Assembly: GCA_030668875.1 (NCBI GenBank)
Contig: DAOVER010000017.1
Coordinates: forward strand, 29,171-61,170
Direction of reading: 5' to 3'
Length of the DNA stretch: 32,000 nucleotides
From: Candidatus Heimdallarchaeota archaeon
Lineage (GTDB): Archaea; Asgardarchaeota; Heimdallarchaeia; Heimdallarchaeales; Heimdallarchaeaceae
A program made the translations under genes and the position numbers. The notes beneath the pieces were generated by a model. The model had not been told where the DNA came from. It saw only the letters and a list, made by a program, of their open reading frames with translations, and searched no databases. Shown here one piece after another: positions 1,575 through 9,186 of this stretch; within the stretch, counting starts at the first letter, position 1; each line of letters opens with the position of its first letter.

Positions 1575-2813
1575 CTATTTACTCTCTTTATTGTCAGATA
1601 TGTAATCATCTCTAATTGTTGTTCCGGGTGCGACAATGGAATTGGTGGGTATTTTTCTTCCAGCAAAGATGAGTGTATTTACTCCTATATCACAATTATC
1701 CCCAATTATGGCTCCAAGTTTTAAAAGACCCGTATTTACTTTCTTGCCATTAATATTCATAGAAACTTCTTTCATACTTGTTTCTGTAATAACAGTCATA
1801 ACCCCCGATGATATACATGTTTTTTGACCTATCACACTGTTCCCAACATAACACAACCGGAAAATTTTAGTTTCATTAAATAGGACAGAATTCTTTATCT
1901 CACTTCCAAATCCAATAAGAGACCCCTTTCCTATTGAACAATGGTCTCTGACTAAAACATTGTTTCCAATATATGTGTTCGCACCAATATATAACGGGCC
2001 GTTAAGAACAGATCCAGAACTTATTTCCACATTCTCTTCGATTATCACTGCGTTTTTTAATTCCACATTAGATGCGATTGACACATCCTTGGCTATTCGT
2101 GATTCTTGTATATTTGATAACAACAACCTATTCGCTTCGATAATATTCCATGGTTTTCCAATATCAACCCATTCTTTTTCCCATATCGCCGCTGACACTT
2201 TATCTCCCTTCTCTATCCTCGCATTTATTGCTTGACTCAATGATTGTTGTAATCTAATCTCATCAAATAAGTCGGTTCTAATAATAAAACAACCCGCATC
2301 AACATATTTGCTCTCAGATGTTTGCTCAATTTTCTTTATACCAGCTTTTTTTACTAATCCCATAGAATCTATCTCAACAATGCCAAAATCTCCAGTATCT
2401 CCTCGCAAAGTTAGGGTCATTGTCATATCAGCTTGTGTATTCTCAAAAGCATTCAATGCTCGTTGCATCAAACCCTTTTCTGGAACAATATCACCAAAAA
2501 GCAATAAAAATTCTGAATCATTTTTAACAAATTCTTCGGATGCTAATAGTGCTGATTCAATTCCTTCCTTCTCGCCTTGGTCTGCATATTGAATGTTAAC
2601 ATTGAAGTCTGTTCCTTTCTTGAAATATTCCCTAATTTGTTCTCCTTTATATCCAGTGACAATAATGATATCGGTTAAACCCATGCCCCGTAGTTCTTCA
2701 ATCAAATATTGCAAAATAGGTTTACCTAACAAAGTAATCATGGGTTTAGGTCTAGTTTCAGTTAATGGATACAAATCTAAGCCCTTGCCACCAGCTAATA
2801 TTACTGTTTTCAT
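1575..2813 (-). CDS. GlmU-like sugar-phosphate nucleotidyltransferase fold plus left-handed beta-helix, with degenerate catalytic motifs
   Basis: MKTVILAGGKGLDLYPLTETRPKPM N-terminus, WVDIGKPW, hexapeptide repeats and KLGAIIGDNCDIGVN. ATG 2813 is preferred over 2894 because a TATA-like box lies immediately upstream of 2894 and the family begins at MKxVILA. Confidence 0.85.
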   Translation of the reverse strand: MKTVILAGGKGLDLYPLTETRPKPMITLLGKPILQYLIEELRGMGLTDIIIVTGYKGEQIREYFKKGTDFNVNIQYADQGEKEGIESALLASEEFVKNDSEFLLLFGDIVPEKGLMQRALNAFENTQADMTMTLTLRGDTGDFGIVEIDSMGLVKKAGIKKIEQTSESKYVDAGCFIIRTDLFDEIRLQQSLSQAINARIEKGDKVSAAIWEKEWVDIGKPWNIIEANRLLLSNIQESRIAKDVSIASNVELKNAVIIEENVEISSGSVLNGPLYIGANTYIGNNVLVRDHCSIGKGSLIGFGSEIKNSVLFNETKIFRLCYVGNSVIGQKTCISSGVMTVITETSMKEVSMNINGKKVNTGLLKLGAIIGDNCDIGVNTLIFAGRKIPTNSIVAPGTTIRDDYISDNKESK

Positions 2814-2895
2814 TCTATTCCTAGACACTATCTCATCACCAATATATCTCTTTTTTCCTAAACTTTCTTTTCCTAATGTTTTGATTGCACCCATG

Positions 2896-3017: not shown

Positions 3018-3500
3018 TTAATATACAGTCGAATCTTCTCGAGTGTCTTTTCTTCTTCTTAGAGGTTTTACAAAAAACACAGAAACTGAAGAAATTAAAG
3101 GTGAAAATAAAGCTAATTGCGATCCAATGCCGAACGGAGCCCACAACCCACTTAAAACCCACCCTACCAAACATATTCCAAAAGATATCCATCTTACAAT
3201 AATCACTGCTTTTGGTTTTGGAAACACAAAGAAGATGTAGAGTAAAGAATTGGTCAATCCAATTAGACTGAAAGCTGCTAATATTATGATTTCCCAGAAC
3301 TTAAGAGAAATGTAGTAACCCTCAACTTGTGGATACATCGTCTCCCAATAGTTTACAGCTATCAAACTATAACCAGCAATAAAACCCATCAACACAACTA
3401 TTTCACTTACTAGGCTGTAATTACAAAGACCCTTGTTTGCCCCTCGACAAGCATTTCCTTCAGAACGAATTGTTTCTTCTTGTTTCTCTGCTTCTGTCAT
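3018..3500 (-). CDS. Hypothetical membrane protein, about 4 TM helices
   Basis: Four hydrophobic segments and a basic C-terminal tail (KPLRRRKD). ATG start is preceded by a GAGGGG-like RBS. No family recognised. Confidence 0.65.
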   Translation of the reverse strand: MTEAEKQEETIRSEGNACRGANKGLCNYSLVSEIVVLMGFIAGYSLIAVNYWETMYPQVEGYYISLKFWEIIILAAFSLIGLTNSLLYIFFVFPKPKAVIIVRWISFGICLVGWVLSGLWAPFGIGSQLALFSPLISSVSVFFVKPLRRRKDTREDSTVY

Positions 3501-3619
3501 AACTAGTTCCCCTCTGTTAGTACACTCTTATACGATGAGTTTAATATTTTTAACTAAAATAAGTTATTCGGTTTTCACTGAAGATTTTTCTTACCTTTAT
3601 ATGCCATTTTGTTTATTAT

Positions 3620-5170
3620 ATGGTAAGAATGAGCGTGCTTACATGGGAGAAGAGAGTAGCTAAAGGAAATAGTAAGGGAACGGGATGGTTGCCTATACCA
3701 AGGGAACTGGAAGAAAGAGTGGAATTAGGCACATATTATGATATTTCTATACATGAGAAAGAAATGGTGCCTCTTGATATCACTACCAAGTTAGTTGAAT
3801 ATAGTGGATATTGGGGATTTTATATTCCAAAAGCGATATGTGAAAAACATTCACTAATAAGAAAGAGAGTAGAGATAATGATTGAAGAATCGGAGTATTT
3901 TCCTGCTCAAATATCTGCAGACAAACGAATTTACTTACCTTATTCCTATGTTGTTGAAAATGAAATTAAAGAAAATGAATTGTATGAAATAGAAATAGTT
4001 GTAGATGGTCTAGCTTTTGGGGAAGTGGTGTTAATCTCTAAGACGGATAGATCAAAAATATCTCGTCTAGATGAATACATTATTACTATACGTTTGTGTG
4101 CAATTCCTAAAAAAGTCCGAGCTAAAGTGAAGTTCATCAGAAAAATTAAGGTCCTTTCACCTGTAAAACCACCCCTTCCTGAGGAATACTTTTACCTTCC
4201 TTCACTTTTTCATGGAGCAATAATGGGGAAGATAGATCCAAACGAAATGATAATTTTCAAGGGAAATCATGTACCGATAATCACTCCTATTACAGTAAAA
4301 TTGGAAGAATATATTCACTATTTTGGATGTTATTATGCAGATGGAACAAAAGTAGGACCAGGGTGGAGTACAAGTGCATCCACACCAGAACAAGCAACGT
4401 ATTTCATTGAACGATATGAGAAATTAGTTTTCAATGATATACTGGATTATGTTTTGATATATAGCCAAAAACCATCAGACAAGAGGACAGAGGAGGAAGT
4501 AAGGAAAGATTTACAAGAATACTGGAAAAGAGAAGCAAGCATAAACATAAAGAGAAAAAAGATTAAGATTCGAGTAACGAAACATGACAATCCATTGAAA
4601 TGGAATAAGTGTGGGTCATTACGTATTTGCTCATACAAAGCACAAGTGTTAGATTTGCATATGGGGTTATTAGGGGAAATAGTTTATTACTTGAACGGAA
4701 GTGAGAATAGAGCGCATCTATGGCAATTCCTTTTTGGAATTTTAGAGGGAGATGGAAGCGTTTGTGGTGGTATAAAGAGGTTTGGAATCGGTTTTGCTTT
4801 TCATAAGGGTGATCAGGTTATTCGAGAATTACTTGATAAATTAGAGGTTAAATATTCAGTCGATTTATCTAGAGTCAAAAACAAAACTGGTTCTGGAATA
4901 TTCGCATCAATTTGGTTATTTGAAGTTTTGCTGAATTTGAAAATACTATCACAAAACATCTTTATTTACTACCCAAAAAGAAGAAAAACGTTTATTGAGA
5001 GACTTCTAAATCAACCAACTGTTAGGTTTATCATGGGTAAAAATACACATCTGGCTCCAATTTCTGAGAACTTTTTTATGGAAAATGACTTTAATCTTGA
5101 AGATATAGAGCAAATACTCTATTCTCTTACTTTAGAACTAAGTAATATTAAACTTGAAACAAAAATATAA
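3620..5170 (+). CDS. Free-standing double-motif LAGLIDADG (intein/DOD-type) endonuclease-like protein with N-terminal AbrB-like repeats
   Basis: Motif 1 PITVKLEEYIHYFGCYYADG and motif 2 WQFLFGILEGDGSV. N-terminal repeats GWLPIPRELEERVELGTYYDISI / GFYIPKAICEKHSLIRKRVEIMI / KRIYLPYSYVVENEIKENELYEIEI. The start may be ATG 3629. Confidence 0.75.
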   Translation: MVRMSVLTWEKRVAKGNSKGTGWLPIPRELEERVELGTYYDISIHEKEMVPLDITTKLVEYSGYWGFYIPKAICEKHSLIRKRVEIMIEESEYFPAQISADKRIYLPYSYVVENEIKENELYEIEIVVDGLAFGEVVLISKTDRSKISRLDEYIITIRLCAIPKKVRAKVKFIRKIKVLSPVKPPLPEEYFYLPSLFHGAIMGKIDPNEMIIFKGNHVPIITPITVKLEEYIHYFGCYYADGTKVGPGWSTSASTPEQATYFIERYEKLVFNDILDYVLIYSQKPSDKRTEEEVRKDLQEYWKREASINIKRKKIKIRVTKHDNPLKWNKCGSLRICSYKAQVLDLHMGLLGEIVYYLNGSENRAHLWQFLFGILEGDGSVCGGIKRFGIGFAFHKGDQVIRELLDKLEVKYSVDLSRVKNKTGSGIFASIWLFEVLLNLKILSQNIFIYYPKRRKTFIERLLNQPTVRFIMGKNTHLAPISENFFMENDFNLEDIEQILYSLTLELSNIKLETKI

Positions 5171-5185
5171 TCAATTAGACAAACA

Positions 5186-7012
5186 TCAAAGGACCGTCAC
5201 AGATTTTGAAAGATTGCGGGGGTACGAAGGGTCTAAGCCTTTTTTCACTGCTGTATAGTATGCTAGTAATTGCATCGGTATCACATATGGTATTGTTGTT
5301 ATCATTTCTGAGTACCCTTTTGGTATCTCCATTTTCCACTTCACCAGCTCTCCTATCTCTTTGTCTCCTTTCTCTATTACTCCTATTGTTGTTGCTCCTC
5401 TCGCTTTCATTTCCATTATATTCCCTATTATCCTCTTATGTGTTTGATCTTTTGGTGCTATGAAAACTACTGGATAATCCTCTTCAATGAGTGCAATTGG
5501 TCCATGTTTTGATTCTCCTGCAGGATACGCTTCGCTATGAATGTAAGCTATTTCTTTCATCTTCAAAGCACCCTCTTTTGCTGTTTGAAGGTTTAATCCC
5601 CGTCCTAAGTAAAAACTGCTGTTCTTTTCAGCGAACCATGAAGCTATTCGGTTAGCAAGCGCTTCACTACGTACTATTGTTTGTTTCACAACTGAGGGTA
5701 TTTTATTGTAGAGTTTTCGCGCTTCATCGTATTCATTGTTCCCTAGCTCTCCTGAGATTCTGCCAATTTCAAGACCGATATCCCACATAGACAATGTTTG
5801 GGCGGTATAAGTTTTAGTTGCTGCTACTCCGATCTCAGGTCCTGCATAAAGATACAATACATCATCAGAATGACGAGTGATTGAGCTCCCAATAACATTA
5901 ACAGCTGAAAGTATTTTTGCACCAGATTTTTTAGCATCCTTAATCGCCATTATAGTGTCCATTGTTTCTCCGCTCTGACTAACTGGCAGAACAATTGTAT
6001 CTTCATCAATCAGAGGACTAATTGAGTCATATTCTGAAGCAATTATGGAAGTGCAAGGTTTCTTAGCATATTTACGAATAAGATTTTCACCGGTTAATGT
6101 GGAATAATGAGCTGTTCCAGCGGCTAAAAGAAAAACCTTCTTAGCATCATAAACCTTTTCTGATATTTTATGTAGGGACGGTTGTTTTATCCGAATATAA
6201 TCTGCTAATGAACTAGATTGCTCGTGTATCTCTTTGAGCATGAAATGAGGAAAACCACCTTTTTGTGCCATTTCTGGTTTCCAAGAAACAATGTATGGTC
6301 TTCGTTCAACCCTTTTCATATTTGTAAAGTTAATTATTTCGTAACCATCGTGTGATAGAGTAACAAACTCATCGTCATGTAGTAGAACAACTTGTCGTGT
6401 GTGAGAAAGAAAAGCTGGGATGTCAGAAGCACAGAACATTCTATCTGAATTTATACCAATAACAAGTGGACTATCTCTTTTTGCACAATAAATTTTATCT
6501 GGATCCAAACTAGAAAGAACACAAATTGCAAATGTCCCCTCTAATTTCCTAATTGTATGGATAATGGCATCTTTTAGTGCCATCTGCTCTTTCTGTATAA
6601 ACTGTTCAATCAGATGAGGAATAATTTCAGTATCTGTCTCTGATTGAAAAACGTGTCCTTGGGTAACTAAGTCCTTTTTTAGTGACTGAAAATTCTCTAT
6701 GATACCATTATGAATTACAGCAATTTCATTTTTGCAATCTATATGAGGATGAGAGTTTTCCTTGCTTGGGGGACCATGTGTTGCCCATCGTGTGTGCCCA
6801 ATAGCAATTTTTCCGTGTAAATCATCTAATTGTATTTTTTCGATAACTTCAGTGATTTTTCCTTCTTCCTTTGATACTTTAACTTGATTATTTTCTATAG
6901 TTGCTACGCCTACGCTGTCATAACCTCGATACTCGAGTTTTTTCAAAGAATCAATGATATTCTTACCGATTTTATTTGTGTCTCGCTGTACTATTCCTAC
7001 TATCCCACACAT
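5186..7012 (-). CDS. glmS: Glutamine--fructose-6-phosphate aminotransferase (isomerizing)
   Basis: MCGIVG (Cys1), GHTRWATHG, HNGIIEN, SETDTE, SQSGET, VAATKTY, KEIAYIHSE, PRNLSKSVT. Confidence 0.97.
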   Translation of the reverse strand: MCGIVGIVQRDTNKIGKNIIDSLKKLEYRGYDSVGVATIENNQVKVSKEEGKITEVIEKIQLDDLHGKIAIGHTRWATHGPPSKENSHPHIDCKNEIAVIHNGIIENFQSLKKDLVTQGHVFQSETDTEIIPHLIEQFIQKEQMALKDAIIHTIRKLEGTFAICVLSSLDPDKIYCAKRDSPLVIGINSDRMFCASDIPAFLSHTRQVVLLHDDEFVTLSHDGYEIINFTNMKRVERRPYIVSWKPEMAQKGGFPHFMLKEIHEQSSSLADYIRIKQPSLHKISEKVYDAKKVFLLAAGTAHYSTLTGENLIRKYAKKPCTSIIASEYDSISPLIDEDTIVLPVSQSGETMDTIMAIKDAKKSGAKILSAVNVIGSSITRHSDDVLYLYAGPEIGVAATKTYTAQTLSMWDIGLEIGRISGELGNNEYDEARKLYNKIPSVVKQTIVRSEALANRIASWFAEKNSSFYLGRGLNLQTAKEGALKMKEIAYIHSEAYPAGESKHGPIALIEEDYPVVFIAPKDQTHKRIIGNIMEMKARGATTIGVIEKGDKEIGELVKWKMEIPKGYSEMITTIPYVIPMQLLAYYTAVKKGLDPSYPRNLSKSVTVL

Positions 7013-8309: not shown

Positions 8310-9104
8310 TCAACTTTTGCCCCATAGATATTCGAAGTTATTTGAGAAAATTTCTATTATGCCTGAATTTGAGGAGAAATGAGGGCGATAAACATATTTT
8401 TCTTGTTTAACAGGAGAAACCCATATAACAAAAACAACTTGCTCGTTATCCACAAGAGTACCACGAGCAAGAACCGATTCATTTGTTATTTCTTTAACTT
8501 TAGCTCCAATTTCCCGTAGCTTTTTAGCGTATGACTTTGAGATTTCATCATCAACATTCATTAGAACTCGAACTGCAACATCCCTTAATACAGCCTCCTT
8601 CAAAGCTTCTTCAACATGTTCAAACCAGTAGAATACATTAGTAAAAATACAAATTTCTTTCTTTGATTTATTTATTAGATCAATTGTTTTTACTTGCATC
8701 TCCCCTAAAGAGGAGTAAGCTGCTATTAATTCATCAGGTTTAATGACTAATTGAGATTGATAGATTGGATCATTTAAAAGTGCAAGAATATGATCAGAAA
8801 TTTTAGTCATTTTGCTTAATTCATCTTTGAATTCTGATTCTTTAAATCCAAGAAAATTTTTCAATCCTTCCTCAAGGTTAAGAACTTCAAATCTCTTAGG
8901 ACGACCTGTAATGGTTCTAACAAGTCCTTTCTTTTGCAAACTCTCAATGGTATCATAAATACGTGGTGTAGGAATGTCAGTTTGTTTATGAATTTCTTCA
9001 GCAGTGGAAGCTGAAAGAGCTATAAGGGTTTTGAGAGTTTTAACTTCATACTGTGTTAAACCAAGGGATTTTAACTTTAAATCAATTTCATCAAGTTCAG
9101 ACAT
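8310..9104 (-). CDS. TrmB family transcriptional regulator
   Basis: LGLTQYEVK...IPTPRIYDTIESLQKKGLV...GRPKRF winged-helix domain plus a PLD-like effector domain. The start is probably ATG 9104 (track gives 9125). Confidence 0.9.
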   Translation of the reverse strand: MSELDEIDLKLKSLGLTQYEVKTLKTLIALSASTAEEIHKQTDIPTPRIYDTIESLQKKGLVRTITGRPKRFEVLNLEEGLKNFLGFKESEFKDELSKMTKISDHILALLNDPIYQSQLVIKPDELIAAYSSLGEMQVKTIDLINKSKKEICIFTNVFYWFEHVEEALKEAVLRDVAVRVLMNVDDEISKSYAKKLREIGAKVKEITNESVLARGTLVDNEQVVFVIWVSPVKQEKYVYRPHFSSNSGIIEIFSNNFEYLWGKS

Positions 9105-9186
9105 AAGTTGTGCTCCAAGTAGCATGATATGAAGATAAATATTTAAATTACTCGTAAAGGAAGGAAATTTAGGTAAAATTCATTAA

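Follow-up and report, generated by a model that had tools for sequence, protein, structure and literature searches.

A candidate free-standing LAGLIDADG homing endonuclease with AbrB-related barrels at the 3' end of glmS in Asgard and DPANN archaea

Introduction

In a 32,000-nucleotide stretch of the genome of a Candidatus Heimdallarchaeota archaeon (contig DAOVER010000017.1, positions 29,171 to 61,170; referred to here as the window), an open reading frame (ORF) of 516 codons at positions 3620 to 5170 of the plus strand codes for a protein, designated P0001, in which two LAGLIDADG motifs are combined with repeats resembling AbrB-type DNA-binding modules. An ORF scan identified it as the sole long frame at this locus. 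The question raised by the locus is whether P0001 is a selfish nuclease or a nuclease domesticated to a DNA-binding regulator, in the manner of bacterial WhiA. Both possibilities had been named in an original prediction made from the sequence alone.

A survey of homologues and their gene neighbourhoods revealed a link to glmS, the gene for glutamine-fructose-6-phosphate aminotransferase, which had been missed in the original prediction. Based on this link, we lean towards the first possibility, namely that P0001 is a free-standing homing endonuclease for which the conserved 3' end of glmS serves as a safe harbour, comparable to attTn7 for Tn7. This reading is preferred because the aspartate residues of both motifs are kept, the gene is sporadic and resides at a fixed site, it is gained and lost as a unit, copies decay, and the gene has been exchanged between lineages. 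Of the two possibilities raised originally, the selfish nuclease is therefore favoured, and the regulator is retained as a tentative alternative which we consider rather unlikely.

The Fixed Position at the 3' End of glmS

In the window, a spacer of 15 bp (5171-5185) separates the P0001 gene from the stop codon of glmS (5186-5188). The glmS gene (5186-7012) is located on the minus strand, convergent with the P0001 gene, and its product ends with PRNLSKSVTVL. The junction at 5171-5230, which comprises the spacer and the conserved 3' end of glmS, is the proposed recognition and insertion site.

A locus scan with one genome per species comprised 55 named loci, and in 52 of them the family gene was found directly beside the 3' end of glmS, convergent in the 15 loci from Heimdallarchaeota and co-directional in the 37 DPANN-type loci. 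The three exceptions are two contigs ending within about 300 bp and one partial copy from Parvarchaeota with no glmS within 2.7 kb. On metagenome contigs, the gene adjoins glmS in nine of nine cases, and for the 14 carriers in a sample of the Asgard phylum, all 11 copies sharing a contig with glmS abut its 3' end. The order of a family gene followed by a convergent glmS was identified on contigs from Hodarchaeales and Helarchaeota, and a 983-amino-acid form with a different N-terminal extension is likewise convergent with glmS. On DPANN-type contigs, the order is glmU-glmS-gene-glmM, on one strand throughout, and in one further clade the family gene is also co-directional with glmS. The C-terminus of GlmS, PRNL(A/S)K(S/A)VTV(L/E/K/R) followed by the stop codon, is conserved in all loci compared.

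The close linkage to glmS, in many cases also to glmU and glmM, is at the same time what makes a regulator worth considering. According to this alternative, P0001 would be a WhiA-like domesticated DNA-binding regulator either of glmS, glmU and glmM, and thus of UDP-N-acetylglucosamine (UDP-GlcNAc) synthesis, or of its own locus, and its barrels and LAGLIDADG saddle would only read DNA. The operon-like position in DPANN would be in agreement with this role, and a precedent is given by WhiA, which is genetically linked to the GlmS regulator GlmR (PMC10986989). Against a regulator stands the position itself: whatever its orientation, the gene was seen at the 3' end of glmS and in no case upstream of it, and in Asgard genomes it interrupts a glmS-glmU or glmS-glmM transcription unit, within which it lies on the opposite strand. 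Opposite orientations at one position in Heimdallarchaeota and DPANN fit a regulator poorly; they fit two insertion events with one retained target specificity.

A second kind of LAGLIDADG element was identified in glmS itself. The glmS gene of one DPANN contig (L066, 859-3957) contains an N-terminal intein (Intein_splicing, HTH_3 and LAGLIDADG_3; residues 19-513), and the family gene (4001-5455) is located right after the stop codon of this intein-bearing glmS, so that two unrelated LAGLIDADG elements exploit one glmS gene. An origin of the family by escape from a glmS intein was rejected, since the comparison with the L066 intein by hhalign gave an E value of 0.11, with similarity only at the level of the motifs. 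A 331-kb DPANN contig (L024; 157-1279, 3212-4189) carries a gene for a 58-amino-acid MazE/AbrB protein divergent from a gene for a 296-amino-acid LAGLIDADG_2 and HTH_3 protein, near rpS9/rpoN; this pair is a split analogue of the fusion in P0001. On the same contig, a LAGLIDADG_3 ORF of 325 amino acids is squeezed between a glmU LbH gene and glmS, and free-standing LAGLIDADG genes between housekeeping genes seem to be common there.

Gain, Loss, and Exchange of the Gene

The family spans Heimdall-, Hod- and Helarchaeota and five DPANN phyla. It was found in 14 of 200 sampled genomes of the Asgard phylum, in 11 of 20 genomes of the family and in 8 of 15 genomes of the genus of the window. In the order around a Woesearchaeota-type carrier, a full copy was present in one of 81 genomes, which is the carrier itself. 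The incompleteness of metagenome-assembled genomes (MAGs) softens these counts, but does not account for the patchiness. Decayed copies were also identified, one with three in-frame stops (G111) and a common truncated copy with stops in two further genomes (G003 and G156). Family copies beside glmS were additionally found in bins labelled as bacteria of the candidate phyla radiation (CPR), namely Patescibacteria, Saccharibacteria, Nomurabacteria, Yanofskybacteria and Peregrinibacteria (L089, L090, L093, L099, L110 and L121). These copies are either misbinned DPANN contigs or cross-domain transfers.

The gain or loss of a single gene was observed between G074 (Ca. Heimdallarchaeum endolithica PR6) and G026, two closed single-contig genomes of one genus which are collinear with 85-91% nucleotide identity. 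Between the start of a glmU-like gene and the stop codon of glmS, G074 contains 1,679 bp with only the family gene, and G026 contains 161 unrelated bp. Outside this interval the two genomes are homologous again, with the borders lying exactly at the glmS stop on one side and the glmU-like start on the other. Six empty genomes of the genus of the window have glmS and the glmU-like gene separated by 55 to 65 bp, and in empty-site relatives the two genes apparently form one operon. A Tn7-like element was rejected, since the indel between G074 and G026 holds one gene, and a domain search identified no transposase domain in P0001 or its neighbours in the window.

Both states of the locus were also found in an independent data set, a cold-seep run of another study. 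Positions 2879 and 5238 of the window are joined in one contig, which thus represents the empty form, and another contig joins 2936 and 3588, with the family gene present and the neighbouring gene for P0176 absent. P0176 is part of the insert in the source genome (G000) and in G153, and is absent in G074. From the second cold-seep contig it follows that P0176 does not belong to the mobile unit; it is an independent indel and no obligate partner of the family gene.

Exchange relative to glmS was revealed by a conflict between the two proteins. The GlmS proteins of G000 and G210 are 89% identical and their family proteins 44%, while for G210 and G080 the corresponding values are 77% and 69%. In maximum-likelihood trees, GlmS groups G210 with G000 and G153 (support 97/100), and the family protein groups G210 with G080 (100/99). 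Approximately unbiased (AU) tests reject the alternative grouping in each tree, with p values of 3.3e-5 and 3.8e-4. The glmS gene of G210 is G000-like up to its stop codon, so that the breakpoint is located no earlier than the stop, in agreement with the indel between G074 and G026. A coexistence of occupied and empty alleles in one MAG was rejected for G115 and G213. The glmS ends are 77% identical in the former and 91% in the latter, and thus belong to different lineages in one bin.

With a fixed site, presence/absence polymorphism, horizontal spread and decay, the family shows the characteristics of a mobile gene. The same observations, namely the very sporadic occurrence, the pseudogenes, the single-gene indel and the tree conflict with glmS, weigh against a WhiA-like regulator.

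Active-Site Motifs and Domain Architecture

With P0001 as lone query, nothing was found in Pfam, NCBIfam or, by phmmer, among the sequences of the PDB. Its relatives form 62 clusters in one database, and a second database contains 130 representatives at 50% identity. The database names of family members are "hypothetical", "AbrB/MazE/SpoVT family..." or "LAGLIDADG family homing endonuclease, partial". An alignment of 33 members (A1), with 23-79% identity to P0001, contains 22 invariant columns. The invariant residues include Y234, G236, D241-G242-T243, S254-T255, Q258, E376-G377-D378-G379 and F448...Y451.K453-R454-R455. An AlphaFold2 model calculated from this alignment reached a predicted local distance difference test (pLDDT) score of 92.4 and a predicted template modelling (pTM) score of 0.87 and was used for all structural comparisons; a single-sequence AlphaFold2 prediction gave a pLDDT of 30.

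As stated in the original prediction, P0001 contains two LAGLIDADG motifs which keep the acidic residue, YFGCYYADG (residues 234-242; 4319-4345, plus strand) and FLFGILEGDG (residues 370-379; 4727-4756, plus strand). Both motifs end with Asp-Gly, and the candidate catalytic residues D241 and D378 are invariant in A1. In the canonical register, the eighth position of the motif is the metal-binding acidic residue, as in the LAGFVDGDG motif of I-CreI with the catalytic D20. Conservation across the family was determined with 158 retrieved sequences of at least 150 amino acids, which were aligned to the family hidden Markov model and clustered at 50%; about 136-140 representatives cover the motif positions. 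At the position of D241, D was found in 132 and E in 3 of 136 representatives, and at the position of D378, D was found in 139 of 140. For the domesticated relative WhiA, the statement of Knizewski & Ginalski (2007), as cited in PMC10986989, is that it "retained only DNA binding", with the catalytic residues lost. No such loss is seen here, since the aspartates of both motifs are kept family-wide, in about 99% of the representatives, which argues against the regulator and in favour of a homing endonuclease.

The double-motif LAGLIDADG domain comprises residues 225-446 (4292-4957, plus strand), and in the model it forms the tandem alpha-beta-beta-alpha-beta-beta-alpha core of this fold. In an exhaustive structural comparison (VIA), residues 225 to about 500 matched PI-PfuI (Z 13.7), the TliVMA intein (Z 12.6), E-DreI (Z 12.1), I-Tsp061I (Z 11.9) and I-DmoI (Z 11.5). 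Foldseek searches against the PDB and the AlphaFold database (AFDB) concur on the nuclease part, and one unnamed full-length AFDB cluster was found at a template modelling score of 0.82. In the ESM Atlas, one unnamed cluster of 497 amino acids from Nanobdellota matched with a score of 0.86. WhiA also matches the LAGLIDADG part of the model (8dy9, Z 11.1; 3hyi, Z 9.9), and this match is one of the points in favour of a WhiA-like regulator.

The N-terminal part had been predicted to contain three, possibly four, repeats of an AbrB/MazE type. Three were detected by profile-profile comparison of the half-units (h2-h3, E 1e-5; h1-h2, E 6e-4; h1-h3, E 2e-3), and the fourth, which is unrecognisable by sequence, was identified in the model only. 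The model pairs these four half-units into two barrels, each within one chain. Barrel 1 (residues 5-91; 3632-3892, plus strand) consists of half-repeats 1 and 2 (GWLPIP... and GFYIPK...) and matches PG0164 (2d9r; Z 10.6, root-mean-square deviation 2.2 Å over 82 aligned residues). Barrel 2 (residues 92-180; 3893-4159, plus strand), which is RIFT/AbrB-like, consists of half-repeat 3 (KRIYLP...) and the degenerate fourth and matches PhS018 (2glw; Z 10.6, 2.0 Å over 79 residues).

According to published work, PhS018 folds into a RIFT barrel within a single chain, shows internal two-fold symmetry and is a homologue of the AbrB-type swapped-hairpin barrels (Coles et al. 2006, as cited in PMC11258233 and PMC4333400). 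The family profile matches PhS018 over both halves with an E value of 5e-4, and chains of the AbrB family, including AbrB, SpoVT and Sso7c4, match more weakly (E 0.02-0.6). PF04014 (AbrB/MazE/SpoVT) is matched by 7 of the 33 members of A1 (best E 1.8e-6), with no match for P0001 itself; LAGLIDADG_3 is matched by 7 of the 33 and the double-psi barrel UFD1_N1 by 3. The predicted relationship to the AbrB superfamily was thus supported. In the model, however, the modules of P0001 are not dimeric swapped-hairpin domains but barrels of the single-chain PhS018 (RIFT) or PG0164 type. AbrB-type domains are classic modules of transcription factors, which again would suit a regulator.

In the model, the two barrels are connected to the nuclease domain by a short beta-rich linker (residues 181-224; 4160-4291, plus strand), which overlaps with the region preceding the nuclease domain in the alignments to intein endonucleases (7qsu and 1jva from residue 188; 2cw8 from residue 187). 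At the C-terminus, the model contains a helical extension (residues 447-516; 4958-5167, plus strand) with the invariant basic sequence YYPKRRK (residues 450-456; nucleotides 4967-4987). Fold matches of this part are weak (Z about 5), and HTH-type Pfam matches were obtained for single members only (E 0.009-0.025). The tail may contact DNA.

Identity as an intein was rejected. The gene has its own start and stop codon with flanking spacers, the N-terminus of the protein consists of AbrB-like barrels, and neither a Hint/splicing domain nor an extein was found, with Intein_splicing matched by 0 of the 33 members. The original prediction was correct in this respect, as it was for the LAGLIDADG fold.

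It is further conceivable that P0001 is a relic in decay or without activity, derived from a homing endonuclease, which no longer cuts and is kept only by chance or linkage. Pseudogenes exist in the family, and for LAGLIDADG genes it is known that invasion is followed by decay and loss in a recurring cycle. The copy in the window, however, is intact and is modelled with high pLDDT, the 22 invariant positions are maintained across copies sharing about 25% identity, the motif aspartates are kept, and the exchange between lineages is recent. A relic is therefore regarded as highly improbable.

Long Forms Fused to Membrane Proteins

Several genomes of the same genus encode the barrel-nuclease module as the last third of a longer open frame (about 1,450 amino acids), again located at the 3' end of glmS. 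This long form consists of an N-terminal hydrophobic anchor, about 560 hydrophilic amino acids which are presumably external, 5-6 transmembrane (TM) segments at residues of about 590-780 and a linker of about 165 amino acids preceding the module; an internal methionine is present about 20 codons before the module. The gene is divergent from a MacB/FtsX-type ABC transporter. Another member, P0065, has a different, soluble N-terminal extension.

Both kinds of extension count in favour of a regulator, in which case the long forms would be membrane-tethered one-component sensors. In G198, the membrane part is broken by stops and the module is intact, which shows that the fusion is dispensable and speaks against such a sensor. 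The long form could be an accidental in-frame fusion of an incoming with a resident gene, and it could equally be a real domestication as the output of a membrane sensor.

The N-terminal approximately 900 amino acids of the long form (L019:5995-10374; G045) belong to a large paralogous family in the genus (for example L059-L062), with open frames of 600 to 2,280 amino acids; G000 contains two of them, on contigs C24 and C55. No Pfam match was obtained for the C-terminal domains of these paralogues or for the extension of P0065. The possibility that P0001 is a truncated long form was rejected, since tblastn searches with the N-terminus of the G045 long form and with the ABC transporter found no remnants in the window, and P0176 is unrelated to either of them. 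Some long forms contain an extra copy of barrel 1 (profile positions 2-88) in the same frame before the module, resulting in three barrels in a row (G115:C113:7080-7343, G127:C182:1991-2248 and G150:C163:844-1104).

The Gene and Its Surroundings in the Window

The P0001 gene has the same GC content as its surroundings and is present as a single copy in the source genome. Its true start is probably the ATG at 3629, which would give a protein of 513 amino acids translated from a leaderless mRNA, since close homologues begin with MS.LTWEK and a TATA-like sequence, TTTATATG, is located at 3596-3603. The gene is preceded by a spacer of 119 bp (3501-3619) which is 92% identical in G153.

Self-regulation at 3500-3620 had been suggested originally and found no support in this spacer, in which no conserved operator was detected. 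One 8-nucleotide inverted repeat (3588-3595/3622-3629) was found, with its first arm not conserved in G153, and there were no direct repeats; scans for sigma-70 promoters and terminators gave results no better than shuffled sequences. The missing operator counts against a WhiA-like regulator. It also bears on the proposal that P0001 is both at once, a mobile site-specific nuclease whose tight binding at the end of glmS modulates read-through to the downstream genes, like a roadblock or terminator, or which represses itself like I-TevI. In favour of such a double function, the element splits glmS from glmU or glmM in Asgard and is located inside the operon in DPANN, the AbrB-like domains suggest a stable DNA binding beyond the needs of cutting, and the upstream spacer is conserved between G000 and G153. 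On balance, the double function is judged improbable.

The gene order in the window is GlmU-like, P0176, P0001, glmS, a gene for a PGI-type SIS protein and a TrmB-family gene. The GlmU-like gene (1575-2894, minus strand) codes for a protein with NTP_transferase and hexapeptide domains. P0176 (3018-3500, minus strand), a protein of 160 amino acids with about 4 TM segments and without Pfam match, is encoded divergently from P0001. Upstream of the PGI and glmS genes, a TrmB-family HTH is fused to a PLD-like/inactive HKD domain (8310-9125, minus strand). This protein is a more conventional candidate for the regulator of this sugar operon.

Proposed Mechanism and Significance

In the model that we favour, P0001 would be a monomeric two-motif LAGLIDADG homing endonuclease with the very end of glmS as its home and probable target. 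The two AbrB-related barrels, the LAGLIDADG saddle and perhaps the basic tail would together read a long site, which would include the conserved last codons of glmS (...PRNLAKSVTV-stop). With metal bound by D241 and D378, chromosomes without the gene would be cut by the enzyme at the stop codon or immediately behind it, and recombinational repair from an occupied chromosome would copy the gene in. In this division of labour, the barrels would serve as extra DNA-reading heads, or possibly as an autorepressor. Since an insertion behind the stop codon leaves glmS intact, the cost to the host would be low. DNA cleavage, the identity of the target site and the roles of the single domains are predicted. 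The fold, the conservation of the motifs, the fixed position, the patchiness, the gain and loss of a single gene and its exchange relative to glmS were observed.

Several points weigh against this model. The long forms, as membrane proteins of about 1,450 amino acids encoded near an ABC transporter, are an odd setting for a homing nuclease, and the DPANN gene looks co-transcribed in a glmU-glmS-X-glmM operon (X being the family gene), as a pathway regulator would be. The invariant aspartates of the motifs could in principle be structural or bind metal without catalysis. The groups compared by the AU tests were chosen after the pairwise identities had been seen. Finally, a co-conversion tract inside glmS of G210 was looked for and none was visible, so that double-strand-break repair is only a putative route of the exchange.

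In a wider perspective, the family might represent an archaeal equivalent of attTn7 targeting, a single-protein mobile element which combines a LAGLIDADG nuclease with two AbrB-like DNA-reading heads and has spread between Asgard and DPANN archaea. Some lineages might have recruited it to provide membrane sensors with a DNA-binding function or to modulate the expression of glmS-glmU/glmM, so that a nuclease would be seen in the course of its domestication, in an archaeal parallel to WhiA. This extended proposal is doubtful at present and more speculative than the homing endonuclease itself.

The original prediction had not recognised the architecture, and likewise no description of it was found in the searchable literature. 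No paper was found naming LAGLIDADG together with AbrB, and a search for LAGLIDADG and Asgard found nothing relevant. For glmS and LAGLIDADG, only the WhiA/GlmR paper and reviews on editing were found, none of which links a LAGLIDADG gene to the 3' end of glmS. The enzyme class as such is known; new are the combination of domains, the location in chromosomes of archaeal cells and the universal safe-harbour site at glmS. Free-standing LAGLIDADG homing is known from organelles, introns and inteins, and if P0001 cuts as proposed, the chromosomes of archaeal cells would be added to this list, with a safe harbour located behind an essential gene. To our knowledge, such a strategy was previously known for Tn7-type transposons in bacteria. 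Tandem barrels of the AbrB/RIFT type would then be a new way to lengthen the recognition site of a meganuclease. The protein would be a natural single-protein nuclease specific for a sequence present in nearly every archaeon and bacterium, of practical interest for the genetics of Asgard and DPANN archaea, where tools are scarce, and the family would mark gene flow between these two groups. If, instead, P0001 should turn out to be a regulator, amino-sugar synthesis in archaea would have its first candidate transcription regulator, and a LAGLIDADG nuclease would have been domesticated independently for a second time.

Comparison to Known Systems

The closest structural counterparts of the nuclease part are I-DmoI, I-Tsp061I, PI-PfuI, the Tli VMA intein and PI-SceI, with which P0001 shares the pseudo-dimeric two-motif fold (Z 11.5-13.7), the retained acidic residues and the sporadic distribution. 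At the sequence level, no match to LAGLIDADG proteins of the PDB was found, either by phmmer with P0001 or with the family profile. In contrast to these enzymes, which are encoded in rRNA introns or inteins, the P0001 gene is free-standing in a chromosomal spacer, and the protein is extended by about 180 amino acids that form the AbrB-related barrels on its N-terminal side and by a basic helical tail.

For the barrels, PhS018 (2glw) and PG0164 (2d9r) are related by superposition and AbrB, MazE, SpoVT and Sso7c4 by profile matches. These are small stand-alone proteins, and the barrels of AbrB and MazE are homodimers, whereas P0001 contains two single-chain barrels in tandem, fused to a nuclease domain.

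WhiA/YvcL (DUF199) has in common with P0001 the LAGLIDADG scaffold and an additional DNA-binding module. WhiA is, however, devoid of the catalytic acidic residues, broadly conserved and vertically inherited in Gram-positive bacteria, and its additional module is a C-terminal HTH. The P0001 family keeps both aspartates, is sporadic and exchanged between lineages, and has its barrels at the N-terminus.

In T4-type phages, free-standing endonuclease genes are located between conserved genes, and their spread has been termed 'intronless homing' (PMC2988022, PMC2790892). The seg and mob endonucleases of T4-like phages are the nearest analogues in strategy, being located between conserved genes and spreading by cutting near their own insertion site in genomes without the gene. 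They are GIY-YIG or HNH enzymes of phages, while the P0001 family consists of LAGLIDADG proteins encoded at a single universal site in the chromosomes of archaeal cells.

Insertion of Tn7 takes place immediately behind glmS, where the element is guided by the binding of TnsD to the conserved end of the coding region (PMC2918618). The likeness to the P0001 family, a mobile element just behind glmS with the conserved coding end as address, is one of strategy and not of homology. Tn7 is a bacterial element and employs the transposase TnsABC together with TnsD of the TniQ family, while the proposed archaeal element consists of a single, unrelated LAGLIDADG protein.

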